DNA of 36,949 nucleotides from the IMG/VR virus record IMGVR_UViG_3300032257_000003; one strand, given 5' to 3'. The translations under genes and the position numbers were made by a program. Shown here in pieces: positions 1 through 36,949 of this stretch. The notes under the pieces were generated by a model. The model saw only the letters and a program-made list of their open reading frames with translations. It was not told where the DNA came from and did not search any database. Position 1 is the first letter of the stretch. Each line of letters opens with the position of its first letter. The stretch comes from an uncultured virus (IMG/VR IMGVR_UViG_3300032257_000003) (lineage: Duplodnaviria; Heunggongvirae; Uroviricota; Caudoviricetes).

Positions 1-71
1 TTCAACTGCGTGTTATTACATAAGGCGCAGTTCAATAGCTTCCATTAACCAACAATCAAAGGGTTACAGCC

Positions 72-563
72 ATGAATGATGATGATAAGCGCAGTTCAAA
101 TAAAGAAGTGCACCTGGTTAAACCTTCTAGTAAGACAGATCAGCTAGGGGTGGGGGGTAGGCATAAGCAAAGTCAACCCTCTTTTGAGGTAGGTGGGTAC
201 CTAGATATATGCAATATTTCTGATTTTGATTTTTTGGCGTCGACTCGTAAAAGTGACCCGAGAATTAAGGCGCTACACGATATGTATGTAGGTGAGGAGT
301 GGATACAGTTTGCTGAAATTGTTGGTTATGAGTCTTTTATGGTTTTATGGATGAAATTTGGAGAAGAAAATAACTCCAAATGCTTATATGTACCTACTTT
401 ATCAAAATATGTGCGATATCAACGAAACCTATTAATACTAAAGCTTTTCGACGAAGGTTATAGGAGCAATCAGATTAAAAAACACATAAAGAGAGAATTA
501 TGTGAGGACATAAGTATTCGCCACATAGATCGTATTTGTTTAAAAAGTAAAATGAAACGATGA
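72..563 (+). CDS. Mor/C-like late transcription activator
   Basis: C-terminal LYVP...RYQRNLLILKLF..G...ISIRHIDRI pattern resembles Mu Mor/C; lies upstream of the late genes. Confidence 0.7.
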   Translation: MNDDDKRSSNKEVHLVKPSSKTDQLGVGGRHKQSQPSFEVGGYLDICNISDFDFLASTRKSDPRIKALHDMYVGEEWIQFAEIVGYESFMVLWMKFGEENNSKCLYVPTLSKYVRYQRNLLILKLFDEGYRSNQIKKHIKRELCEDISIRHIDRICLKSKMKR

Positions 564-2185
564 CTGATAAAACCGCAATAATATATGCCCGTGTTAGCTC
601 AGCTAAACAGGCAGAAGAAGAATTACCCATATCTAGCCAGATTGAACAGTGCAGAAAGAAGGCTGAATCTTTAGGTGCAAATATAATTAAGGTTTACTCT
701 GATGAAGGTATTTCAGGTAGCTCTGATAAACGCCCAGCATTTCAAGATGCGATGTTATTTTGTGAAATTGAACCACCAACATACTTAATTACCTGGTCAA
801 GTTCTCGCTTTGCCAGAAATAAAGTTGATGCAGGGTTTTATAAAAAACGTTTAGCAACAGCTAACGTGAAAATAATGTATGTATCTATGGAAGTTGATAC
901 AGACACTACAGGAGGCTGGTTATTAGATGGTGTTATGGAAATTTTTGATGAGCTATATAGTAGGCAGGTAAGTGCTGATACAAGGCGTTCACTAATTAAA
1001 AACGCTAAAGATGGTTACTGGAATGGAGGGCGGGTGCCTTATGGATTCATAGCAGCTAACGATGTTGAAAACCCTAAAAGAAAACGCTTAGCTCATAATC
1101 CTGATGAGGTCGATGTAGTAAGAAAAATATTCGATTTAAAAATGAATGAAAATATGGGTGGTAAATCTATTTGTATTTGGTTGTCAGAAAACGGTTATAA
1201 ATACAGAGGTTCAACCTGGAAGGTTTCAACAGTTCAAAGTCTCTTAAGAAATAAACTGGTCATAGGTAAAACAACATTTGGCAAACGTGATTCAAATAGA
1301 AAAATAAGACCGAAAGAAGAATGGATTATTGTTGATAGTCATAAACCCATTATTGACTCAGTTACATGGGACACAGTACAAAAAATAATGGATTCACAAA
1401 CAGACCCAGAAAGTAATGGTAGCCCCAAAAGCCTGCACACATTCACAGGGCTCTTAACTTGCGGTCAGTGTGGTTCATCTATGCATACTGAAAGTGCTAA
1501 GGGTAAACTGAAAAGGTTTTATTACTATAACTGCTCGGCGGCTGCTAAGTATAAAAAACATAAACCAAGGCGTATTAACTCAGATGCAATGGATAAATGG
1601 TTATTGCAGGTAATTTGTGAAACGATATTTTCAGAAGAAAACTTAACAGAGATAATTAATAGTCTATTTGATATTGCTGGTACATGGTTATATGAGAAAA
1701 ATAAAAGATTAAGTAGTGCAGAAAGCAGGCTGTTATCTTTAAAACAAAAACAAAATAACTTATATGATTTATTGGAACTTCATGGGTTAGATGCGCCAAA
1801 TCTGGGTGATTTATCAGAAAGGCTAAAAAACAATAACGAGAAAGCTAAGATAATTGAACAGGAAATAGCAATAATAGACGCTGAAACACCTCCGGTAATA
1901 GAGAAAGCGTCTAAATCAACCATTAGAGAGGTATCTAAGTTTTTAACAGAATTAATTATTACTATGGAAAATCCCAAGAAGGTAAGGGCCCTCTTGGGAA
2001 CATTCATTGAAAGCATCGTTCTTAAGGATACTTATATTACGGTTAACTATAACCCTAATAGCCTGATAGACCGGACTAGTGCCGGTGTTCTCAGTGACGT
2101 TGTATGGCTCCCCGAGCAAGGCCTACTGGGAACACTATCAGTTAAATTCAGATTACCTTCAACATTTCATAAAAAAGCTGCTTAA
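560..2185 (+). CDS. Large serine recombinase (integrase)
   Basis: IYARVSS catalytic motif, DEGISG, SRFARN, GGRVPYG recombinase domain, CGQCG...YYYNC zinc ribbon and coiled coil; ATGA overlap with upstream ORF. Confidence 0.95.
   Translation: MTDKTAIIYARVSSAKQAEEELPISSQIEQCRKKAESLGANIIKVYSDEGISGSSDKRPAFQDAMLFCEIEPPTYLITWSSSRFARNKVDAGFYKKRLATANVKIMYVSMEVDTDTTGGWLLDGVMEIFDELYSRQVSADTRRSLIKNAKDGYWNGGRVPYGFIAANDVENPKRKRLAHNPDEVDVVRKIFDLKMNENMGGKSICIWLSENGYKYRGSTWKVSTVQSLLRNKLVIGKTTFGKRDSNRKIRPKEEWIIVDSHKPIIDSVTWDTVQKIMDSQTDPESNGSPKSLHTFTGLLTCGQCGSSMHTESAKGKLKRFYYYNCSAAAKYKKHKPRRINSDAMDKWLLQVICETIFSEENLTEIINSLFDIAGTWLYEKNKRLSSAESRLLSLKQKQNNLYDLLELHGLDAPNLGDLSERLKNNNEKAKIIEQEIAIIDAETPPVIEKASKSTIREVSKFLTELIITMENPKKVRALLGTFIESIVLKDTYITVNYNPNSLIDRTSAGVLSDVVWLPEQGLLGTLSVKFRLPSTFHKKAA
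2085..2135. other. Candidate attP inside the integrase 3' end
   Basis: 11-bp inverted arms GTGTTCTCAGT / ACTGGGAACAC (1 mismatch) around a 29-bp spacer containing TGGCTCCCCGAGCA, the reverse complement of a tRNA-like 3' end. Confidence 0.6.
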
Positions 2186-2229
2186 ACAATTACTTATACT
2201 AGTTTAATGGATGTGCATTTAATAACCTA

Positions 2230-2255
2230 AGACCATAACGCCCCTTATTATGTCT
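2230..2255 (+). promoter_or_regulatory. Late promoter / activator-binding motif, copy 1
   Basis: AGACCATAACGCCCCTTATTATGTCT followed by a T-tract; recurs at 8576 and 11304. Confidence 0.7.
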
Positions 2256-2280
2256 GTATTTTTTTAACAAAATACAGCAT

Positions 2281-3225
2281 ATGGGAAAGCCTCGTTTATT
2301 ACCGTTAATTGAAGTTTATTTTAAGTGCCACTCTTGTGGGCATGATTTTAAGGCTGTGCCTGGTGAAACAGTTGAGGCCCCTGATTGCTGGTGGCACCCG
2401 TTTGAATATTTCTGTAAATGTGAAAAATGTGGTGATGATGCTATTCAGCATGGCCGTGAGGTTGGTTTATTAAAGGCTCATGCCATGGCCACAGGGCCGA
2501 GAACTGCTGAAGGTAAGGCAGCTTCTGCTAAGAATCTTGAAGGCCACCCTACACCTGAAGAAACAAACCAGACCCGCTTTAATGCTTTAAAGCATGGGCT
2601 TTATGCTCAAACTGCAACATATTTTCCCGCCCGTCCTGGTAAATACGCTATTTGTGAAGCTTGTAATTATCGTGGGCATGAATGCACTGAAGGTTCAGAC
2701 GATAACCCACCTGCATGCTTAAGGCGTGTTGAACTGTTCATGAAACATCAGATGGCTTTTGATGCAAAAGACCCGGGCATGTTAATGAATTTGCGCTCTG
2801 GAACCCAGGCAGCTATTCAAGCCATGATTGATGAAATGATTATGACGATTGCCGCCGATGGTGGGCCGCGAATTAAATCTGTTGAGTGGTACCACGATAA
2901 AGATGGTGGTTTTCATTTGGCTAAATATAAAGATGACAAAGGTGAACATCATCAAATTCATAAGTTAGAAGAACACCCGCTTTTAAAGCGTCTAATTGAT
3001 TATATAGCTAAAAATAACCTCACACTTTCTGATATGGGTATGACACCTAAAGTGCAAGAAGATCAGGATATTTTAAGAGGTAATTTAGATAATGACGAAA
3101 AGGAAAAAGAATCAGCTAATGAATATATGAAGAGTATAGAGCAGGGGCAAAGCAACTTACTCAAATTGATTAGCAATAGTTATGATGAAAAAGATGTTGA
3201 AAATGCGGTGATTGTCGATGGCTGA
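2281..3225 (+). CDS. Probable terminase small subunit (atypical, Cys-rich)
   Basis: Directly precedes and overlaps TerL; TGPRTAEGK...NALKHGLY motif; CxxC pairs. Confidence 0.6.
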   Translation: MGKPRLLPLIEVYFKCHSCGHDFKAVPGETVEAPDCWWHPFEYFCKCEKCGDDAIQHGREVGLLKAHAMATGPRTAEGKAASAKNLEGHPTPEETNQTRFNALKHGLYAQTATYFPARPGKYAICEACNYRGHECTEGSDDNPPACLRRVELFMKHQMAFDAKDPGMLMNLRSGTQAAIQAMIDEMIMTIAADGGPRIKSVEWYHDKDGGFHLAKYKDDKGEHHQIHKLEEHPLLKRLIDYIAKNNLTLSDMGMTPKVQEDQDILRGNLDNDEKEKESANEYMKSIEQGQSNLLKLISNSYDEKDVENAVIVDG

Positions 3226-4906
3226 GCGCGTAACAGCGGCACGCCGTGTTCAACTGCAAAATGTTGCTGAGCGTGAGATAAATCGTTACCAGGGCAACCA
3301 CGCAATGTGGCATAAGCATATACATAATATTGATTTAGATTCTGTGCAAATTCTAAAAATGAATGAAATGGATACGCACGCTAATACCATAGATTTCAGC
3401 TCACGGCGTACAGGTAAAACAGCTTGCAAAGAATTATATAACCTTGAATACAACACATGTAATGCAGATCAGGAACTAGGCATAGTTGCTCCCCGTGAAG
3501 CACAGTCTATTACTAACCTAAATTATCACATGGATGCCATAAGGCGATCAGAAATACTCAGCTCATTTTTGATGTTTAAAAATGGCCGTGCTCAAATCAG
3601 TGACACTAAATATGAATTTATGAACAGAAGCAAAGCGTCTGCTTTTGGCATAATGGCCCAGGTTGATGGTGGTGATTTAACGGTGGCTTCTTTAGAAGAA
3701 GTTGACGATATGCCAAAAGATCGTTTGTATTCTCGTTTTTTATTAATGCTAGCTTCAACCAGGCGATTAGGGGCCAGTAAAGAAAGTAAAAATGACCCTC
3801 AAATAAGAATAACAGGTGTATTTAAGGGTGCAGACACACTCACTGAATTAATAGAAACAGGCAGTTATCATTCACTTGCATCATATAAAGGCAAAGCCAT
3901 TAGAAATGTTTTGCAGGAAATGATAGATAAAGGCTGGCTAAATGCCGATTGTGTTGACCTTGAAAATTATAGATTCCCTATACCCATACTGCACGCAATG
4001 AACGGCATTAACCTGGGCATTATTAATGAAAGTGCTATTAGTGATTTAAAAGCAGGTTTGTCTGATGATGAAGTTACCCGCCAGCTGCTTTGTGTAAACA
4101 CATCATCACGAAACTTAATATGGGAAATTTATCTACGTAGAGCTCTGCAAGTTGGTTTGCAAGCCGGCCTTGAACTGGCCACACCTTTACCAGGTGAACA
4201 TTATAAAAAACGTGGTTTAGTTTCATTTGGTTATGATCATTCTGGGCACGGTGAAAATTTAACATCATCAAAATATGCATTTGTCGTGCTTGAACAATTA
4301 GGCAATTTTAGCGTGCCTGTCTTTGCAAAAACATGGCCACCTGGTACAGATGAAACAATTGTTGAACGTGATCTAGTGGGTTTCTGGCGTTACTTTGACC
4401 CAGATATAGCTAATGGTGATGCGTTTGGCATTGGCATGATGACCACCTTGAATGATGATTTATATCGCTTAGGTTTAACCACTGTAAATCGTTTAACCAT
4501 TGGTGATGGTGAGTCAACAGCATCTACCTGGGGTGAATGGCCATTTAGCCCAATGCGGTTTGAAGGCATGATAAAACATCAAATGGCAACCACTGTAAAA
4601 ACAAGCTTTCACAATGCACAAGTAGCATTGCCTTACATTGATGATAATGATTTAGATAACCCAGAAACAGAAGACTATCGTCTTTTATTGCGCCAGTTGC
4701 TCAACATCGTGCCAGAAGAAACCAGCAAATCTTATTCAAGTTACAAGATGGCAAAAAAATCAGTAGGTGATGATTTGTTTGACTCATACATGGCAGCTCA
4801 ATGGGGTTTAACAACCCGTGGCGTCAATATTATTCCTACCGCCATAGTTTTAGGCACAAGTACACGCGCCCAGCTTCTTGGGCAGCAGCAAGTTATAGGA
4901 GGTTAA
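3218..4906 (+). CDS. terL: Terminase large subunit
   Basis: Walker A SSRRTGKT, Walker B ASLEEVDD, nuclease motifs FGYDHSG and GDDLFDSY; ATG 3218 preferred over TTG 3212. Confidence 0.88.
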   Translation: MAERVTAARRVQLQNVAEREINRYQGNHAMWHKHIHNIDLDSVQILKMNEMDTHANTIDFSSRRTGKTACKELYNLEYNTCNADQELGIVAPREAQSITNLNYHMDAIRRSEILSSFLMFKNGRAQISDTKYEFMNRSKASAFGIMAQVDGGDLTVASLEEVDDMPKDRLYSRFLLMLASTRRLGASKESKNDPQIRITGVFKGADTLTELIETGSYHSLASYKGKAIRNVLQEMIDKGWLNADCVDLENYRFPIPILHAMNGINLGIINESAISDLKAGLSDDEVTRQLLCVNTSSRNLIWEIYLRRALQVGLQAGLELATPLPGEHYKKRGLVSFGYDHSGHGENLTSSKYAFVVLEQLGNFSVPVFAKTWPPGTDETIVERDLVGFWRYFDPDIANGDAFGIGMMTTLNDDLYRLGLTTVNRLTIGDGESTASTWGEWPFSPMRFEGMIKHQMATTVKTSFHNAQVALPYIDDNDLDNPETEDYRLLLRQLLNIVPEETSKSYSSYKMAKKSVGDDLFDSYMAAQWGLTTRGVNIIPTAIVLGTSTRAQLLGQQQVIGG

Positions 4907-4910
4907 CCCC

Positions 4911-6308
4911 GTGGAACTTTACGACATTCAAAGTAAATATATAAAACTAGGCATAGGTGACTTAGGGCGCACTGGCAAACAGGCTATGTATGAAAGCCAG
5001 GGCTTTACACCAGGTGTAACAACAGAGCGTGGTAGCCGCGCAACACTAGAAAATAGTGTTAAATATTTATATCGAATGATGTGGACAGACCCCGAACTTC
5101 ATCAATCTATTTTAGATTTGCGCTTAATGGATAAAGCAGACGGTCGGGTTAAAAAAATACATAACAAAATGTCACGCACAGCGGTTAAAGGTGGATTACG
5201 TTTAAAAGTTGAAGGTGATAACAAACGTATTATTAAAATATGGAAGCAGTTTGTTAAACGCCTTAATTTAAACAGACAAGAAAAACTTGAAAGTGATGCT
5301 AAGGGTTTAGTGATGGAAGGCAACCTACCACTGCAGTGGGTTGTTGGTGATAACAACACCATTGTTAATTGTGTGCGCATGCCCAGTGAAACCATCATGC
5401 CAAACGTTACAGAAAACGGTGTATTTAAAGACCCAAATCACGCATATACACAATTTGATTTAACAACCGGCAATGAATTAGCAAAGTTTTCACTCTGGCA
5501 ATTAACGCTGGTTAGACTTAGCCCAGATAATTATGATGACATGGGTGCAATGGGCCGACCTTATTTAGATGCAACTCGCAGCGTCTGGAAAAAACTCTGC
5601 ATGACTGAAGAAGATTTAGTTATTCGCAGACGTGAACGAGCACCATTAAGAACAGCCCATTCATTAGAAGGCGCAACAACAGAAGAACTCCAGCTTTATA
5701 AAGAGCAAATTGAAAACGATCAAAAAGAAATAACCACTAACTATTATATGAATAAAAAAGGTGCTGTTGATGCTGTGCAAGGTGATGCAAACCTTGACCA
5801 GATAGCAGACGTTAATTATTTATTAGATACATTCTTCGCAGGCTCACCCGCACCAAAAGGCTTATTTGGTTATGTTGGCGATTTAAGCAGAGACATATTA
5901 GAAGACTTAAAACGTGATTACTTTGAAGAGATAGATGCACTTCAAGACACGCATGCCTTTGCTTACCAGTTAGGGTTTCGCCTTGAACTTTTACTGCACG
6001 GCATTAACCCAGACGCCATTGAATATGAAGTTAAATTTGCAGAGCGCAGAACAGACACACCAAACCAACGTGCAGACCATGCACTAAAACTGCAGGCGTT
6101 AAATGTGGGCAATAGAATAGTGTGGGAGGCAGCCGGCTTAAATACTGATGATGTGCTGGCAGCCAAAAAAATAGAAGCTAACAGTAATGACCCTTACCCA
6201 AACGATGAAGAAAGTGACCATGGGCCAAACAGTAAGCCCACGGTAAAAGTAACACCAGGTAATGAGCGTAAAGGTGATAGCGGCACAACAATTAATAATA
6301 AAGGTTAG
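4911..6308 (+). CDS. Portal protein
   Basis: 465 aa between TerL and MuF; GRPYL and SPAPKGLFG portal-like segments. Confidence 0.8.
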   Translation: MELYDIQSKYIKLGIGDLGRTGKQAMYESQGFTPGVTTERGSRATLENSVKYLYRMMWTDPELHQSILDLRLMDKADGRVKKIHNKMSRTAVKGGLRLKVEGDNKRIIKIWKQFVKRLNLNRQEKLESDAKGLVMEGNLPLQWVVGDNNTIVNCVRMPSETIMPNVTENGVFKDPNHAYTQFDLTTGNELAKFSLWQLTLVRLSPDNYDDMGAMGRPYLDATRSVWKKLCMTEEDLVIRRRERAPLRTAHSLEGATTEELQLYKEQIENDQKEITTNYYMNKKGAVDAVQGDANLDQIADVNYLLDTFFAGSPAPKGLFGYVGDLSRDILEDLKRDYFEEIDALQDTHAFAYQLGFRLELLLHGINPDAIEYEVKFAERRTDTPNQRADHALKLQALNVGNRIVWEAAGLNTDDVLAAKKIEANSNDPYPNDEESDHGPNSKPTVKVTPGNERKGDSGTTINNKG

Positions 6309-11443: not shown

Positions 11444-14008
11444 ATGCGTAAAGCACAAATTTACAAACTTGAGTCAGCAGCCCCGGATGGGGTGCGTCGG
11501 TTTTGTGGTGATGTTGTTTCCCTTGCTGAGGGTAAAAAGGTTGTCACGGTAACGGTTACCCGGACGGGTAAGTTTTACGACCCACGTTATGGCGAGTTTG
11601 AAATTACACCCACCATGTTAGATAGCATGGTTAGTAACTTTAAGAATGATGCTTATGGGCAAAAAATTGTTTTAGATGTTTCACACAATGCAAGTAATGG
11701 TGCTGCTGGATTTTTCCAAAAGTTATTTGTCGATAGGGGCAGGCTTCGTGGGCAGGTTGAACTCACTAAATATGGTATTGAAGCAATAAAAGAAAAAGGT
11801 TTTATCTATGTGTCTGCTGAGTTTCATGACAATTTTGTTGATAACGAAGCCAGAAAAGAGCATGGGCCAACTTTATTAGGCGCAGGCTTAACGCCTCGCC
11901 CCGTTATAAAGCATTTAGACCCTATTCAATTATCTGAAGAGACTTTAGGCACCGTGCCTACCTATTTATCGAACCGTATTGAAAAAATTATTAACGAGGA
12001 CATGAACATGAATTTAAAAGAATTAATGGCAATGCTGCGCAAAAAACTAGGCGCATTCAACCTTGCAGAACATATTATGACGCAGTTAATCAACACGTTT
12101 GAAGGTGTTGCAAAAAATGCTGCGAATGAAGATATTCAAATGACGTTAATGGAAGCGTTTGTAGACCAGGGAAAAATTCTGGCTGAAGAGCTAGAGAAAG
12201 GCAATAAAGACATTAAACTTGATTTTTCTGGCCTGGACATGGGCACAAGCTTAAGTGCTGATGATGTGGCTAAAATGTTAGCTGAACATGATGAAAACCG
12301 CACAAAAGCACTGGCTAAAACTCAGGAAAGTTTAAACGCTAATGTTGAAGCATTCACCACACAGCTTAGCGAAGCCAAAGAACTTGAAGGCGCACCAGAA
12401 GATTTACTTAAAACACTGGGTGAAGCGGCTAATTTAATTACTGCAACAATGACACATGACCAGGTTAAATCACTGGCAATGCAGCAGATTGCATTAGGTC
12501 AACAATTTGTCGTGCAGTCAAAGCTACAAGGCATGGGTTACAACAACGCACCTGCAGGCAGTGTGCATTTAAGCGTTGATGATTCAAACAACATTAACAA
12601 ATTACAGCAAGGCATTATTGATGGCTTAAAAGGCACATCAAATCATGCAAATGGTTTAATTCACCTTTCTGAAAAACTACACCCATTCTGTGAAAAAGTG
12701 CTGGGTGAGTTTGACCGCATGCATGCGCCACAACTTCATCACGAAGCCAAGTTACTGGCAGGTGGTGAGAGCTCAACCAGTGATACAAGCTTACCTGTAG
12801 GTTTTCAACGCACGGTAATTCGTGAAGCACTATCAGACACCAATGTTTTACAGTTAGTGCAAACGCTTACTGATTTTGGTGCAACAGGCACAACCAATAT
12901 ACCTTATGAAACACGTGATACCAGCAACGTAACAAATGATGGTGTGGTTTATGAGGGCAACGCCATTCACCGTGCCAGCGTTTCACAAGAAATGGATCTG
13001 GCCTACATCTTGCCAATGAAAATTGCATTCTTAATTTCAAATGAAGTAATGCATTTTACACGAGCAAGCGCCATTAACTGGGATGCCTACGCCCGAAACG
13101 TAGAGAGCAACGCCCGCGTTATGCGCGAGTTAGTAGCCCGCCGCATTTGTAACGAGTTGCAACGTGCAGCCGACGCTTACAATGCAGTTGATATTTTAAA
13201 TGAAGATTTAGATGCTCAGCTCACAGGCTCTGTTAGCACAGTTAAAACAGCGCAATTTCCCATTGTTCGCCAACATCAACAACGCGATTTAAAAGGCAAC
13301 GCGGTGGGCGCGGCTGAAAATGCAATCACTATTCAATTAAATGGTGTTGCCATTAATGAATATAACGGCACTAACACACAAAGTGCCGGCACATATTACC
13401 GGGTAACTAATTACAACCTGGGCTATGTTCAGTTTGTTTCAGAATTGGGTGCGGCGGTAACGCCTGCAGCCACGGCCGGTGCTGACGATATCAGTTACAG
13501 CTATGCAACCAATGTCGAAAAGTTTGACCTTGATAATGGTTCAACTGAAATTGGCAAACACTTAAACGGTTTGCTTCGTGCAGTGGGTAACCGTAAAGCG
13601 TTAATGTCATCAGACCGTTTTGTGCTGCCTAACTTTGGCTTAATGAGCCCAACACTTAATAACACCATTACCAATGCTGATAACTTTGAGGCTCAATCTA
13701 AGCGTGATGGCTCAAACACCAATAATGATGGTGACCTTGAAATGGTTAAGGGCGTTTCTTCATTCGGCACCAATGCTCCTGGCATTGATATGGGTGATGA
13801 ACGAATGATTCTAGGCCAACGTGGTGTGTTGACTTACACCATTGCAAAACCATTTGTAACCAAGCAACCATTTGAAGCGGTTGACTCAAACGGCAATGCA
13901 ATTGGCAAGATGCAGGCTTACGGTGAAGAGTACAGTGCAATTAAAGTGCCCACACCTATTCGTAACCGCCTAACGTCTGTGCTTGCTTACAGTGTAACTG
14001 GCCGTTAA
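11444..14008 (+). CDS. Fused Mu I-like prohead protease / scaffold / major capsid protein
   Basis: N-terminal LDVSH..AAG, YVSAEF, LLGAGLTPRP protease motifs; helical charged middle region; C-terminal capsid-like region; no other capsid candidate. Confidence 0.85.
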   Translation: MRKAQIYKLESAAPDGVRRFCGDVVSLAEGKKVVTVTVTRTGKFYDPRYGEFEITPTMLDSMVSNFKNDAYGQKIVLDVSHNASNGAAGFFQKLFVDRGRLRGQVELTKYGIEAIKEKGFIYVSAEFHDNFVDNEARKEHGPTLLGAGLTPRPVIKHLDPIQLSEETLGTVPTYLSNRIEKIINEDMNMNLKELMAMLRKKLGAFNLAEHIMTQLINTFEGVAKNAANEDIQMTLMEAFVDQGKILAEELEKGNKDIKLDFSGLDMGTSLSADDVAKMLAEHDENRTKALAKTQESLNANVEAFTTQLSEAKELEGAPEDLLKTLGEAANLITATMTHDQVKSLAMQQIALGQQFVVQSKLQGMGYNNAPAGSVHLSVDDSNNINKLQQGIIDGLKGTSNHANGLIHLSEKLHPFCEKVLGEFDRMHAPQLHHEAKLLAGGESSTSDTSLPVGFQRTVIREALSDTNVLQLVQTLTDFGATGTTNIPYETRDTSNVTNDGVVYEGNAIHRASVSQEMDLAYILPMKIAFLISNEVMHFTRASAINWDAYARNVESNARVMRELVARRICNELQRAADAYNAVDILNEDLDAQLTGSVSTVKTAQFPIVRQHQQRDLKGNAVGAAENAITIQLNGVAINEYNGTNTQSAGTYYRVTNYNLGYVQFVSELGAAVTPAATAGADDISYSYATNVEKFDLDNGSTEIGKHLNGLLRAVGNRKALMSSDRFVLPNFGLMSPTLNNTITNADNFEAQSKRDGSNTNNDGDLEMVKGVSSFGTNAPGIDMGDERMILGQRGVLTYTIAKPFVTKQPFEAVDSNGNAIGKMQAYGEEYSAIKVPTPIRNRLTSVLAYSVTGR

Positions 14009-28403: not shown

Positions 28404-29195
28404 TTATATAGCATCAAGCGTCATTAACAAAATTTCTTTAGTTATTGTTTTAGTATGTGTACGTAACATGTTTTTATAAAGCGCGGCAATAACTCGGCTT
28501 TTTTGATCGGCATCGAGTTTAATCTGATCTTCAGTACACGTTTCTTCTGTGTATGAAATAGCTAGTTTTAATAACTCTAAATTGATTTTTGCAGGTTCTT
28601 TTTCAGATGAATCATATAGCTGTGATTCGCCTTTAAATGATTTTGATTCAAAATTTAAAAGGGCATCTTCAGCATTACCAATTATATCCTGGTTACCCAT
28701 TTTCCCTGCATATAATCGGCGCATTGTAAATTCATCTAATGCTATTTCACTAGCTGCAATGGGTTGCATTTTTAGAGTGGACAGGGTTTCAGGCCCAATA
28801 GGCCCAGCGATAATTTCAACAGCGGTGTAACTAAATTCGTTTTTAGAAACCTGCATAACGCAAGGCAAGGTAAGAATAATTGCCGGATAAAGTGGGTTGT
28901 TTAATACCACAATTTGCCAGCCTTCATCTTCTATATGTGTGCTTAAAAGCTGGCTTGTTTCATCGTCTGTAGTGGCGTGATGCACCATATAAGGTTCACC
29001 TGAACCATTTAACAACCAGGACAAAGACACGTTTTCAGCCTTACTGATAGGAATTAATTTTTCAGGCCCTAATGTGTGCCCGTTTTTTATTCTGGTAACG
29101 TCAGCGGCCTTTAAACCAATGCTTTTAGCCCATGGCGTCATTTTCCTTTTGCCGAGAATATAGCTGATCCGGCCAAAAAACGTATTATTTATCAT
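28404..29195 (-). CDS. CI-like repressor (XRE HTH)
   Basis: WAKSIGL..VTRIKNG...NVSLSWLLNGSGEP; divergent from the early operon; start at 29195 or 29225 uncertain. Confidence 0.8.
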   Translation of the reverse strand: MINNTFFGRISYILGKRKMTPWAKSIGLKAADVTRIKNGHTLGPEKLIPISKAENVSLSWLLNGSGEPYMVHHATTDDETSQLLSTHIEDEGWQIVVLNNPLYPAIILTLPCVMQVSKNEFSYTAVEIIAGPIGPETLSTLKMQPIAASEIALDEFTMRRLYAGKMGNQDIIGNAEDALLNFESKSFKGESQLYDSSEKEPAKINLELLKLAISYTEETCTEDQIKLDADQKSRVIAALYKNMLRTHTKTITKEILLMTLDAI

Positions 29196-29264
29196 ATTAT
29201 TTATTTGACAAGTATGATTTATCATACTATTGTTTATACAGTAGTTAATGTAATACATATTACA
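29181..29264. promoter_or_regulatory. Lysis-lysogeny switch: rightward sigma70 promoter with operators
   Basis: TTGACA(29205)-17 bp-TATTGT; palindrome AGTATGAT-TT-ATCATACT (29211-29228) and degenerate copy (29181-29198); TGTAATA-CA-TATTACA (29249-29264). Confidence 0.8.
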
Positions 29265-30290: not shown

Positions 30291-30755
30291 ATGTCACATA
30301 AATCAATTAGTGATATAGACCAGGCAAAGCACGATATTGTGCATGCTGGCAAGTTCACACCTAAAGAGCTCGCAGAGCTTACCAGCATTTCATATGGCAC
30401 CTTGTGTAATAAGGTGCACGTTAAATCACCTAACCATTTTTTAATGGTTGATGAATCATTAAAAATTCAAAAAATTCAAGATGTGCGTTATTTAATTGAG
30501 GCCGAATGCCGTGAGTTAGGTGGCGTTTATATTCAGGTGCCTGATGAAATTCATAATACCTCTGATGTTGATTTAATTGCCGCCTGGGCGGCATGGCATA
30601 AAGACACAGCAGAAACCTGCACAGCTATTAGTGAAGCATTAAAATCAAAATCAATAACAAAAGATCATTTGAAAAAAATTCGTAAAGAAATGTTTGAAGA
30701 TTTTCAACGCGAATTAGAGCTATTTCATCGAATGGAGGTGCTTTGTGATGAGTAA
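30291..30755 (+). CDS. CII-like regulator (CP76 family)
   Basis: ELAELT..YGTLCNKV..NHFL...CRELGGVYIQVP. Confidence 0.8.
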   Translation: MSHKSISDIDQAKHDIVHAGKFTPKELAELTSISYGTLCNKVHVKSPNHFLMVDESLKIQKIQDVRYLIEAECRELGGVYIQVPDEIHNTSDVDLIAAWAAWHKDTAETCTAISEALKSKSITKDHLKKIRKEMFEDFQRELELFHRMEVLCDE

Positions 30756-31471: not shown

Positions 31472-32080
31472 ATGAGTTATTCAAGAAAACAGTTTGAACG
31501 TTATTTGACAGAAGATGATGAAAATAAACTTTTTAAATATGTGGCTAAGTTTGCTGATGTTATGTCACGACGAGATTATGCGTGGATGGGAATATTGAGA
31601 CAAAGCGGAATGAGAGTTAAAGCAATGTCTCTATTTACCGTGAGTGATGCACGTAAAACATTATCTACGGGTTATTTTCATATCAGGGCTGAAACCAATA
31701 AAGGCTGTAAAGCGCATACATGCAGAGCCAATAAAAAAGCATTAACACATTTACGGGCTTTGTTATTGATTCGGCTTGAAATGGGGTATGTTGAGTTACC
31801 AAACAAGCCGTTGGTTATGAGTAGAAATCATAAAGGTTTGAGCATTCGCAGTTATCAGGAGCGTATGAAGCATTGGCGAATTGCTGCAGGTTTAGGCTGT
31901 GATGCATCACCGCACTGGTTTCGTCACACATTGGCAAAACGAATTATTAAAACATCTGTTAGCCGTAACCCATTAGCTATTGTGCAGGTAGCTCTTGGGC
32001 ATTCATCTATTACCAGTAGTGGCGTGTATACCATGCCAGATAAAGAAGAAATGGAGCTCAGCATGGAGGCTGCATCATGA
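31472..32080 (+). CDS. Tyrosine recombinase, catalytic domain only (FimB/FimE-sized)
   Basis: SGMR, K, HWFRH, LGH, catalytic Y in GVYT; 202 aa; GGAGG SD. Confidence 0.9.
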   Translation: MSYSRKQFERYLTEDDENKLFKYVAKFADVMSRRDYAWMGILRQSGMRVKAMSLFTVSDARKTLSTGYFHIRAETNKGCKAHTCRANKKALTHLRALLLIRLEMGYVELPNKPLVMSRNHKGLSIRSYQERMKHWRIAAGLGCDASPHWFRHTLAKRIIKTSVSRNPLAIVQVALGHSSITSSGVYTMPDKEEMELSMEAAS

Positions 32081-36851: not shown

Positions 36852-36949
36852 ATGGCTTGCAAATGTATAAATATGTGCGGTTATGGTGACGATAGCTGGG
36901 GCAAGCATCACCATGTTAAATGCGAAAAGTATGAAACAGAAAAGCACTC
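36851..36949 (+). CDS. Partial hypothetical protein, runs off the window
   Basis: AAGGAG SD; MACKCINMCG... has no stop in the window. Confidence 0.5.

Follow-up and report, generated by a model that had tools for sequence, protein, structure and literature searches.

Introduction

According to a review (PMC6070905), the phage attachment site (attP) of myxophage Mx8 lies within the coding sequence of its integrase (IntP/IntX), and integration provides the gene with a new 3' end and the protein with altered properties. For mycobacteriophage BPs (clusters G, I, N, and P), an attP within the repressor gene has been described, where integration removes an ssrA-like tag; the long form is degraded while the prophage form is stable. 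In the same work, the exchange A135E stabilises the 136-residue repressor, and a signal for proteolysis is reported at the C-terminus of the integrase as well (PMC4557955). Here, we analyse a 36,949-nt stretch of DNA from an uncultured virus of the Caudoviricetes (IMG/VR record IMGVR_UViG_3300032257_000003), referred to below as the window, which carries the gene int for a large serine recombinase (LSR). It is very likely that attP of this phage is located inside int, that its target is the 3' end of a tRNA-Asn gene, and that integration swaps the C-terminal tail of the integrase.

Serine integrases are a standard example of recombinases whose direction is set only by a separate recombination directionality factor (RDF), and they are widely used as genome-engineering tools. 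The location of attP within the integrase gene together with integration into a tRNA gene is known from SSV1-type archaeal integrases, which are tyrosine recombinases and whose gene becomes split in two parts. For JC1, attP has been placed 41 bp upstream of the serine recombinase gene and integration in rimO. A search of the full-text literature, with most subscription journals outside its reach, returned no description of a serine integrase which has attP in its own gene or which targets tRNA-Asn; publications on VarioGold, Paracoccus, and JC1 turned out to be unrelated.

Results and Discussion

The integrase gene and its attachment site

The features on which the analysis relies are as follows (positions in the window; strand where one applies).

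560..2185, plus strand: int, large serine recombinase in its free-phage form, 541 aa (Pfam, AF2 model, Foldseek)
2086..2134: putative attP of 49 bp, symmetric about 2110, the base opposite tRNA G71 (axis and arm covariation in 38 sites; the junctions of the phage itself fall inside)
2086..2097: P' arm (ACTGAGAAC-type), doubling as codons of a conserved V-x-S and remaining with int in attL (follows the tRNA CCA in every prophage)
2103..2115: 13-nt block TATGGCTCCCCGA common to attP, attL, and attR of the phage, on the tRNA strand TCGGGGAGCCA plus TA (attL match ends at 2115, attR match starts at 2103)
2105..2107, plus strand: TGG, coding for the invariant W516 and antisense to the CCA end of the tRNA (alignments; register with tRNAs)
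2123..2134: P arm (of the GTTCCCAGT type when read on the tRNA strand), doubling as codons of the conserved LLGT of the tail and going to attR (far junctions of four prophages)
2114..2185, plus strand: codons of E519-A541 and stop, the 23-residue tail removed from int by integration (attL of the phage; relatives)
2135..2152, plus strand: tail residues 526-531, predicted beta-strand (AF2)
2171..2182, plus strand: K538 K539 A540 A541, basic patch and C-terminal Ala-Ala (tail comparison)

The open reading frame (ORF) of int ends with ...WLPEQGLLGTLSVKFRLPSTFHKKAA (...VVWLPEQGLLGTLSVKFRLPSTFHKKAA). Pfam assigns the domains Resolvase (PF00239; E 2e-24, residues 6-153), Recombinase (PF07508), and Zn_ribbon_recom (PF13408). 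In the N-terminal resolvase domain, R11 and the serine nucleophile S13 are invariant in both alignments (A1 and A2), and V12 is invariant in A1, with a conservation of at least 90% in A2. The AF2 model (66 sequences) has a mean predicted local distance difference test score (pLDDT) of 83.8 and places a coiled coil, formed by the long helices 359-411 and 415-440, within the recombinase and zinc-ribbon part. When compared by Foldseek with full-length complexes of serine integrases and DNA, the model matched 9y66/9dxd (SPbeta-type), 9rah (phiC31), 9iu2 (Bxb1), and 4kis (LI) with E-values from 6e-24 to 1e-12. On the basis of the Pfam domains and these structural matches, the ORF is thus assigned as a large serine recombinase.

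A megablast search of window positions 1-6000 against phages found nothing, and the only cultured phage with a full-length relative of the integrase is Microcystis phage vB_MaeS-yong1 (39% identity), the integrase of which has a WRP-type end without AA. A scan of viral contigs with the single integrase protein gave no match, and an alignment-based search was used instead.

Integrated relatives have a different integrase C-terminus

The best 120 homologues of the integrase (40-99% identity) were compared at their C-termini. They are alike up to an invariant W-L-P, the tryptophan of which (W516) is invariant in alignments A1 and A2, beyond which two classes can be told apart. The sequence is WLPxxxLL(G/R)T...LPxRFx(K/R)(K/R)AA in the long forms, and forms which are about 13 residues shorter read WLPGTGSNRRPSD, WLPDLDSNQGQTD, or WLPDQGSNLGPAD. 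The element (G/D)SN is the antisense coding of GGTTCGA(A/G) from the tRNA T-loop. A gene for tRNA-Asn(GTT) overlaps the 3' end of int on the opposite strand in 23 of 39 genome loci, in agreement with the target that had been proposed in the initial annotation of the window. At tRNA-Asn loci, the int ORFs end with WLP..(G/D)SN..D and a stop codon, so that the natural prophage forms lack the AA tail and terminate with Asp, a residue that the sequence of the tRNA imposes. Asn-type forms are terminated by TAA, which is complementary to the tRNA bases U35, U36, and A37. Past each CCA, the phage DNA carries ...ACTGnGAAC, and the same bases code for the V-x-S of the integrase.

The opposite prophage end was searched for in five host genomes, as the other arm joined to GGAGCCA. 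Such a far junction is present in four of them, at a distance of 40-45 kb. Intact, AA-ended orphan tails (..LLGT..LPxRFx(K/R)(K/R)AA and stop) were found in three of these four prophages, in the frame of int and each terminated by a stop codon: WLPEPSLLGTINVPMIEFKRKLPSRLVKAA in Alteromonas, WLPEQGLLRTTVAAFDLPSRFIRAAA in Pseudogulbenkiania, and WLPENVLLRTTHAAFNLPPRFTRRAA in Paludibacterium. Homologues of the window ORF at 2281-3225 are located directly inside the far junction in all four prophages, followed in two of them by homologues of the terminase-like ORF at 3212-4906. The tails and packaging genes at the far junctions indicate that these prophages are window-like genomes which have been opened inside the integrase tail.

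The ends of int were also parsed, anchored on the matches, in 119 loci; an end was recognised in 92 of these, leaving 27 unclassified. Among viral records, tRNA-type ends are within 100 nt of the record end in 25 of 31 cases, versus 4 of 34 for free-type ends. Some sub-lineages have other ends. In L016, int overlaps a gene for tRNA-Arg(CCT) and ends with WRPEQELNL and stop, and in L026 it overlaps tRNA-His(GTG) and ends with WGG and stop, an end which is also found in L024 and L143. WRPKLDSN.. ends occur in L128 and L135, the latter overlapping tRNA-Asn.

Three further loci have an unusual organisation. In L022 (around 11537-11590), the int end is of the tRNA type and the tRNA-Asn gene is reduced to its 3' 47 nt (from the anticodon loop onward), with AT-rich DNA before it; a second element has probably inserted into the same tRNA gene. 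In L039 (10001-12044) and L206, the LSR has the opposite orientation to the Mor-like gene (see below) and/or the packaging genes, which looks like a rearranged or inverted integrase module.

Junctions of the phage itself in microbial-mat metagenomes

Contigs from microbial-mat metagenome runs (X1, X2, and X3) were placed on window positions 1-4000. The attP form is represented by a contig from X1 (2754 nt, depth 28), which is unbroken over 150-2903. The attL form is represented by a contig from X2 (1769 nt, depth 11), which has 0 mismatches over 364-2115 and continues with CCTGGACTCGAACCAGG, the reverse complement of the T-stem and T-loop of a tRNA. The attR form is found on contigs from X2 (276 nt) and X3 (300 nt), which begin with non-phage sequence ...GGTTAACGAGCCTTTTTAGAA and match the phage from 2103 onward.

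Because the attL match extends up to 2115 and the attR match begins at 2103, the crossover must be located inside 2103-2115, a block which ends before the third base of the E519 codon. The crossover point is most likely at G70-G71/A72, on the symmetry axis of attP. Both X2 contigs extend exactly 17 letters past the junction, as expected from an assembly with 31-letter words if the 13-nt core also occurs in the path of an empty attB; X2 probably also holds unoccupied sites.

It had been predicted from the window alone that the KKAA tail is replaced by antisense-tRNA codons. This is what is seen in the attL contig of the phage and in dozens of relatives; the junction itself reads WLPDLDSNQ.. and not WLPEQDSN as had been anticipated. 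The proposal of an attP inside the integrase gene is likewise borne out by the occurrence of attP, attL, and attR forms of the phage in metagenome contigs and by covarying arms in 38 sites (see below), and the comparison of free and prophage forms, which had been suggested along with it, places the breaks inside the int tail. The products expected of recombination between attP and attB, namely attL and attR, are seen for the phage and for its relatives, and the integrase is their probable catalyst.

Symmetry and arm covariation of attP

The initial annotation had drawn attention to 11-bp inverted arms within the int coding sequence. These are present at 2085-2095 (GTGTTCTCAGT) and 2125-2135 (ACTGGGAACAC), are complementary in 10 of 11 positions, and have 29 nt between them, with the noted spacer sequence TGGCTCCCCGAGCA at 2105-2118 and the protein end also as described. 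On its own, the inverted repeat is within chance, as the same scan yields 9 comparable pairs in 501 nt. It is the comparison across relatives that makes it credible. When 38 distinct free-form sites were aligned on CCA, one axis stood out, the base opposite tRNA G71, with a mean of 9.5 complementary arm pairs as compared to at most 4.2 at every other axis tried.

At distances (d) of 13-24 positions from this axis, 55-97% of the pairs are Watson-Crick, with compensatory changes at d15, d18, d19, d21, and d24 (d15: TA 20, CG 9; d18: CG 20, TA 5; d21: TA 29, GC 6; d24: GC 29, AT 3, TA 3). Closer to the axis (positions 4-12), symmetry is absent except for a near-constant T-A pair at d5; a near-constant pair is also found at d3. 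At phiC31 attP, the recombinase domain contacts positions ±4-15 and the zinc-ribbon domain ±17-27 (linker plus zinc-ribbon about ±13-27), the zinc-ribbon being 5 bp closer at attB. The motif GGTTC is at d20-24 in attP versus d15-19 in the tRNA T-loop (G52-C56). As judged from these alignments, the arm geometry of attP thus fits that of serine-integrase sites, and with 49 bp and covarying arms, the site is short and symmetric, as is usual for sites of about 40-50 bp. As the axis falls on the single base G71, the central dinucleotide would be GG or GA.

A single 49-bp sequence thus serves as two DNA half-sites, as the 3' end of a tRNA, and as the code for a protein C-terminus. For a serine integrase the target is unusual, as the natural attB is made up of the T-arm and the acceptor end of tRNA-Asn, both of which are nearly universal.

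The 23-residue tail

Among 107 distinct free-form tails, 76 end with AA and 91 with A; 7 more end with VA. As a background, only 21 of 466 mechanically called ORFs of at least 150 aa from the same loci end with AA. The AA end is retained in tails that carry insertions (..ISPAA, ..KPALAA, ..CGQSAA). In the 28 distinct AA-ended tails for which DNA was compared, all three stop codons occur, and both Ala codons vary freely: the last one is GCA in 9, GCG in 8, GCT in 6, and GCC in 5 cases, the penultimate one GCG in 11, GCC in 9, GCT in 7, and GCA in 1. Two basic residues precede AA in 14 of these 28 (RR 6, KK 5, RK 2, KR 1). The motif LPxRF is located outside attP, at least 25 nt beyond the arms, and is nevertheless conserved. 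Because AA is maintained despite free synonymous change and LPxRF is outside attP, both appear to be selected as protein, and we are confident, as far as sequence comparison allows, that the tail is under protein-level selection.

Known C-terminal ClpX tags include ssrA (AANDENYALAA), RseA (..MGVAA), and MuA (RRKKAI) (PMC8138137). The integrase ends with HKKAA and thus has both features looked for in a degradation tag, a free C-terminal Ala-Ala and a basic K/R patch.

A further observation concerns the database protein P0001, which is identical to the integrase over residues 1-525. Its 5 differences are all confined to residues 526-535 (window 2135-2164), directly beyond the P arm. The pattern resembles a mosaic breakpoint at attP, with the tail behaving as if it were part of the packaging module next to it; it might have arisen, for instance, by exchange at att sites between related phages.

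Proposed mechanism

As the junctions show, attP recombines with the 3' end of the host tRNA-Asn(GTT) gene within 2103-2115, whereby the phage supplies the last bases of the tRNA. The prophage integrase gene then runs antisense into the tRNA and stops about 10 codons later, giving a protein of about 528 aa. The tail, E519-A541, remains as an orphan at the opposite end of the prophage, beside the packaging genes, and excision would restore the full gene. Because orphan tails have been kept intact, the swap should in principle be reversible.

We propose that the tail is a functional peptide, made up of a docking strand and a basic patch that ends with Ala-Ala-COOH. Its most likely role would be to mark the free-phage integrase for proteolysis of the type in which C-terminal tags are recognised (ClpXP-type). 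Integrase made after infection or after excision would then be short-lived, and the Asp-ended prophage form would be untagged. Acidic C-termini resist ClpXP. As a whole, with site, swap, and a functional tail that is most probably a proteolysis mark, we consider this the best explanation and a reasonably likely one. For the tail taken separately, the action as a degron is suggested tentatively from its sequence, and an AAA+ protease would then degrade the tagged form. When the candidate roles are ranked, degradation signal comes first and docking element second, and the two may act together.

The product of recombination rewriting the recombinase could also amount to a self-contained switch for commitment and directionality, which would operate without a dedicated RDF. 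Under such a switch, the 541-residue integrase, with its tail docked and AA-tagged, would be proficient in integration and short-lived; the prophage integrase of about 528 aa would be stable and have a different competence on attL × attR, and excision would restore the unstable form and so block re-integration. From the sequences at hand, we regard this extended scheme as rather unlikely.

Evaluation of alternative explanations

Several observations weigh against the mechanism that we propose. With respect to the site, the far junction was not found in the fifth of the five host genomes searched, the orphan tail of the Polaromonas prophage is degenerate, and the B' side of attB has no conserved arm in the five host flanks examined. 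The window may derive from runs X1 and X2, which would then not be independent of it; both forms are still seen. With respect to the tail, 31 of 107 lack the AA end, and it is also missing from the free-form tails that could be assigned to the WRP (L087, L134) and WGG (L167) types. The third-last residue is usually K or R, unlike the Leu of ssrA, a hydrophobic residue at this position being restricted to the few tails that end with LAA or VAA. Also, the tail is not predicted to be simply disordered: mean pLDDT reaches 77 over residues 521-530 and 81 over 531-540, with the strand at 526-531, following a linker (505-520) with pLDDT below 50. The predicted strand would suit a structural role at least as well as that of a pure tag. 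Finally, tyrosine recombinases are encoded in all 36 complete related viral records that were searched.

This last point raises the question of which recombinase is responsible. The 3' ends of tRNA genes are classic targets of tyrosine integrases, the shortest identity seen between attL and attR is only 7 bp, and a tyrosine recombinase of about 340 aa whose catalytic set is complete is encoded within 3 kb upstream of the LSR, ahead of the Mor-like gene, in 25 of 30 genome loci with enough flank. It might thus be this enzyme, encoded two genes upstream in relatives, which performs tRNA-Asn integration, while the serine recombinase does something else. A scan of viral contigs with the tyrosine recombinase as single protein retrieved itself and one relative, and the alignment search that was then used yielded 81 loci. 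An LSR is located downstream in 53 of these, 22 have no LSR, in 1 (L206) the LSR is found at another place and on the other strand, and 5 are too short. Most of the 22 loci without LSR have the gene order tyrosine recombinase, Mor-like gene, 2281-like gene, terminase. However, a loose motif of att core plus arm, which occurs in 36 of 43 LSR-bearing loci, is found in only 2 of these 22, both being of the GGTGCCA type and chance-like, and tRNA-Asn was found in 0 of 23 loci without a downstream LSR. As motif and tRNA-Asn are present along with the LSR and nearly absent without it, the att site belongs to the LSR module; by the same gene-order comparison, the tyrosine recombinase and the Mor-like gene are backbone genes outside this module. 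Conversely, locus L006 has an LSR-tRNA-Asn junction, yet such a tyrosine recombinase is absent within 10 kb upstream. The covarying arms at 13-24 bp from the axis correspond to the geometry of serine-integrase sites, and a shift of the target to tRNA-His or tRNA-Arg changes the end of the LSR itself (WGG and stop, WRP..). We thus consider integration by the tyrosine recombinase very improbable.

Even with the swap being real, the job of the tail may be a different one. It could exert catalytic control, with strand 526-531 docking onto the body formed by recombinase domain, zinc-ribbon, and coiled coil, and biasing the enzyme toward attP × attB; in phiC31, RDFs bind at the base of the coiled coil. 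The tail-less prophage form might then differ on attL × attR, needing less help from an RDF or being inactive until excision is triggered. The ordered strand after a low-confidence linker is consistent with docking, as is the conservation of LPxRF as protein outside attP. A co-fold of residues 150-504 with 505-541 scored 0.50, with 0.00 for the best of three controls, and at least 71% of the contacts are shared between the three runs, with a partner pLDDT of at least 52. This is weak support, and the score is in a band that is more often wrong than right. The mark is reached by 116 of 157 solved complexes and by 2 of 215 mismatched pairs, and scores of up to 0.60 are found for only 18 of the 157 solved complexes and for both passing mismatches. 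Mx8 provides a precedent, in that integrase specificity is changed and not inactivated upon integration (PMC6070905). An RDF-like gene was not recognised in scans of 33 window ORFs, which agrees with the initial annotation, nor was one seen travelling with the LSR module; this negative result is weak because, to our knowledge, RDFs of serine integrases have no common signature. Docking would leave the AA end of the tail length variants unexplained, and catalytic control as the job of the tail is possible, if unlikely. It is improbable that the swap results simply from the compactness of the module, with attP happening to overlap the end of the gene and no regulatory part being played by either C-terminus. 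The LLGT of the tail is indeed constrained as DNA, as it is the P arm, and some lineages lack the AA end. The frequency of AA-COOH relative to the ORF background, its maintenance under free synonymous change and across length variants, and the conservation of LPxRF far beyond the arms are, however, difficult to reconcile with a tail devoid of function.

Neighbouring genes and elements

The following additional features were annotated.

72..563, plus strand: Mor-like helix-turn-helix protein, stop overlapping the int start (ATGA); backbone gene
1972..1999, minus strand (strand of the tRNA): terminator-like hairpin inside int, about 105 nt past CCA, with an 11-pair stem followed by TTTTCC
2281..3225, plus strand: first gene after attP, followed by terminase-like and portal genes; marks the other prophage end (all 4 prophages examined have homologues directly within the far junction)
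28404..29258, minus strand: CI-like repressor (ORF scan)
30291..30755, plus strand: CII (CP76)-like activator, lysogeny control region
31472..32080: tyrosine-recombinase-like ORF, 202 aa
33917..34459, plus strand: further helix-turn-helix protein, lysogeny control region

The Mor-like protein is 32% identical to the 'middle operon regulator' ORF which precedes the LSR of Microcystis phage vB_MaeS-yong1. In 25 of 40 loci, its gene is found shortly ahead of int, and in relatives that lack the LSR it directly precedes the 2281-like gene. It had been considered as a candidate RDF and was dropped, as it has the same position in relatives without LSR.

The hairpin at 1972-1999 is not significant by itself (2 such sites in 3 kb, versus 2.3 in shuffled sequences). 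Among relatives, terminator-like sites are found within 200 nt after CCA in 21 of 91 distinct sequences, as compared to 6 of 91 in the next 200 nt, and some relatives form a hairpin directly from the P' arm, 6-17 nt after CCA. As judged from their position, such hairpins could replace the terminator of the tRNA itself, which has moved to attR, and so restrict transcription that enters int in the antisense direction.

The remainder of the window encodes siphovirus-type head, tail, tape-measure, and J-like fibre genes. The 202-aa ORF corresponds to a second, shorter tyrosine recombinase that is usual in the family. The gene for the tyrosine recombinase of about 340 aa would, in this phage, lie just before window position 1. 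The locus L177, which lacks an LSR, has a tRNA-Val gene 640 nt upstream of its tyrosine recombinase gene. The window falls short of the whole genome: a virus record with 100% identity (L168, 18548-18927) continues for 380 nt past position 36949, and a contig from X1 (record 1) reaches 440 nt before position 1.

Comparison with known systems

The domain set and fold of the integrase, the attP of about 50 bp with symmetric outer arms, and a zinc-ribbon motif that is 5 bp closer in attB are shared with the integrases of phiC31, Bxb1, SPbeta (SprA), and Listeria LI/A118. In the published cases consulted for such canonical serine integrases, attP is located beside the gene and the integrase is unchanged upon integration, whereas here, attP is located in the gene and the target is a tRNA gene.

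In having attP within the integrase ORF and in acquiring a new C-terminus upon integration, the system resembles Mx8, the target of which is a tRNA gene. The Mx8 enzyme is a tyrosine recombinase, while int lacks tyrosine chemistry and is a large serine recombinase; the piece swapped here is furthermore set apart by its 23 residues with a conserved AA end. With a serine recombinase at the junction, the system thus works in an Mx8-like manner and yet is outside the Mx8 family. The resemblance to BPs is that integration removes a C-terminal extension from the gene that holds attP. In BPs, the repressor is split and a tyrosine integrase acts, whereas here the serine integrase itself is split and degradation is putative; the CI-like repressor gene of the window is untouched, 26 kb away on the other strand. 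In SSV1-type systems the gene is split in two, while int obtains a new short end.

We thus have a large and environmentally widespread family in which the integrase gene exists in two natural forms, before and after integration, which differ in a conserved translated tail. Its closest precedents are Mx8 and BPs, both of which are tyrosine-recombinase systems, and it is the serine-integrase case that appears to be new within the full-text literature searched.

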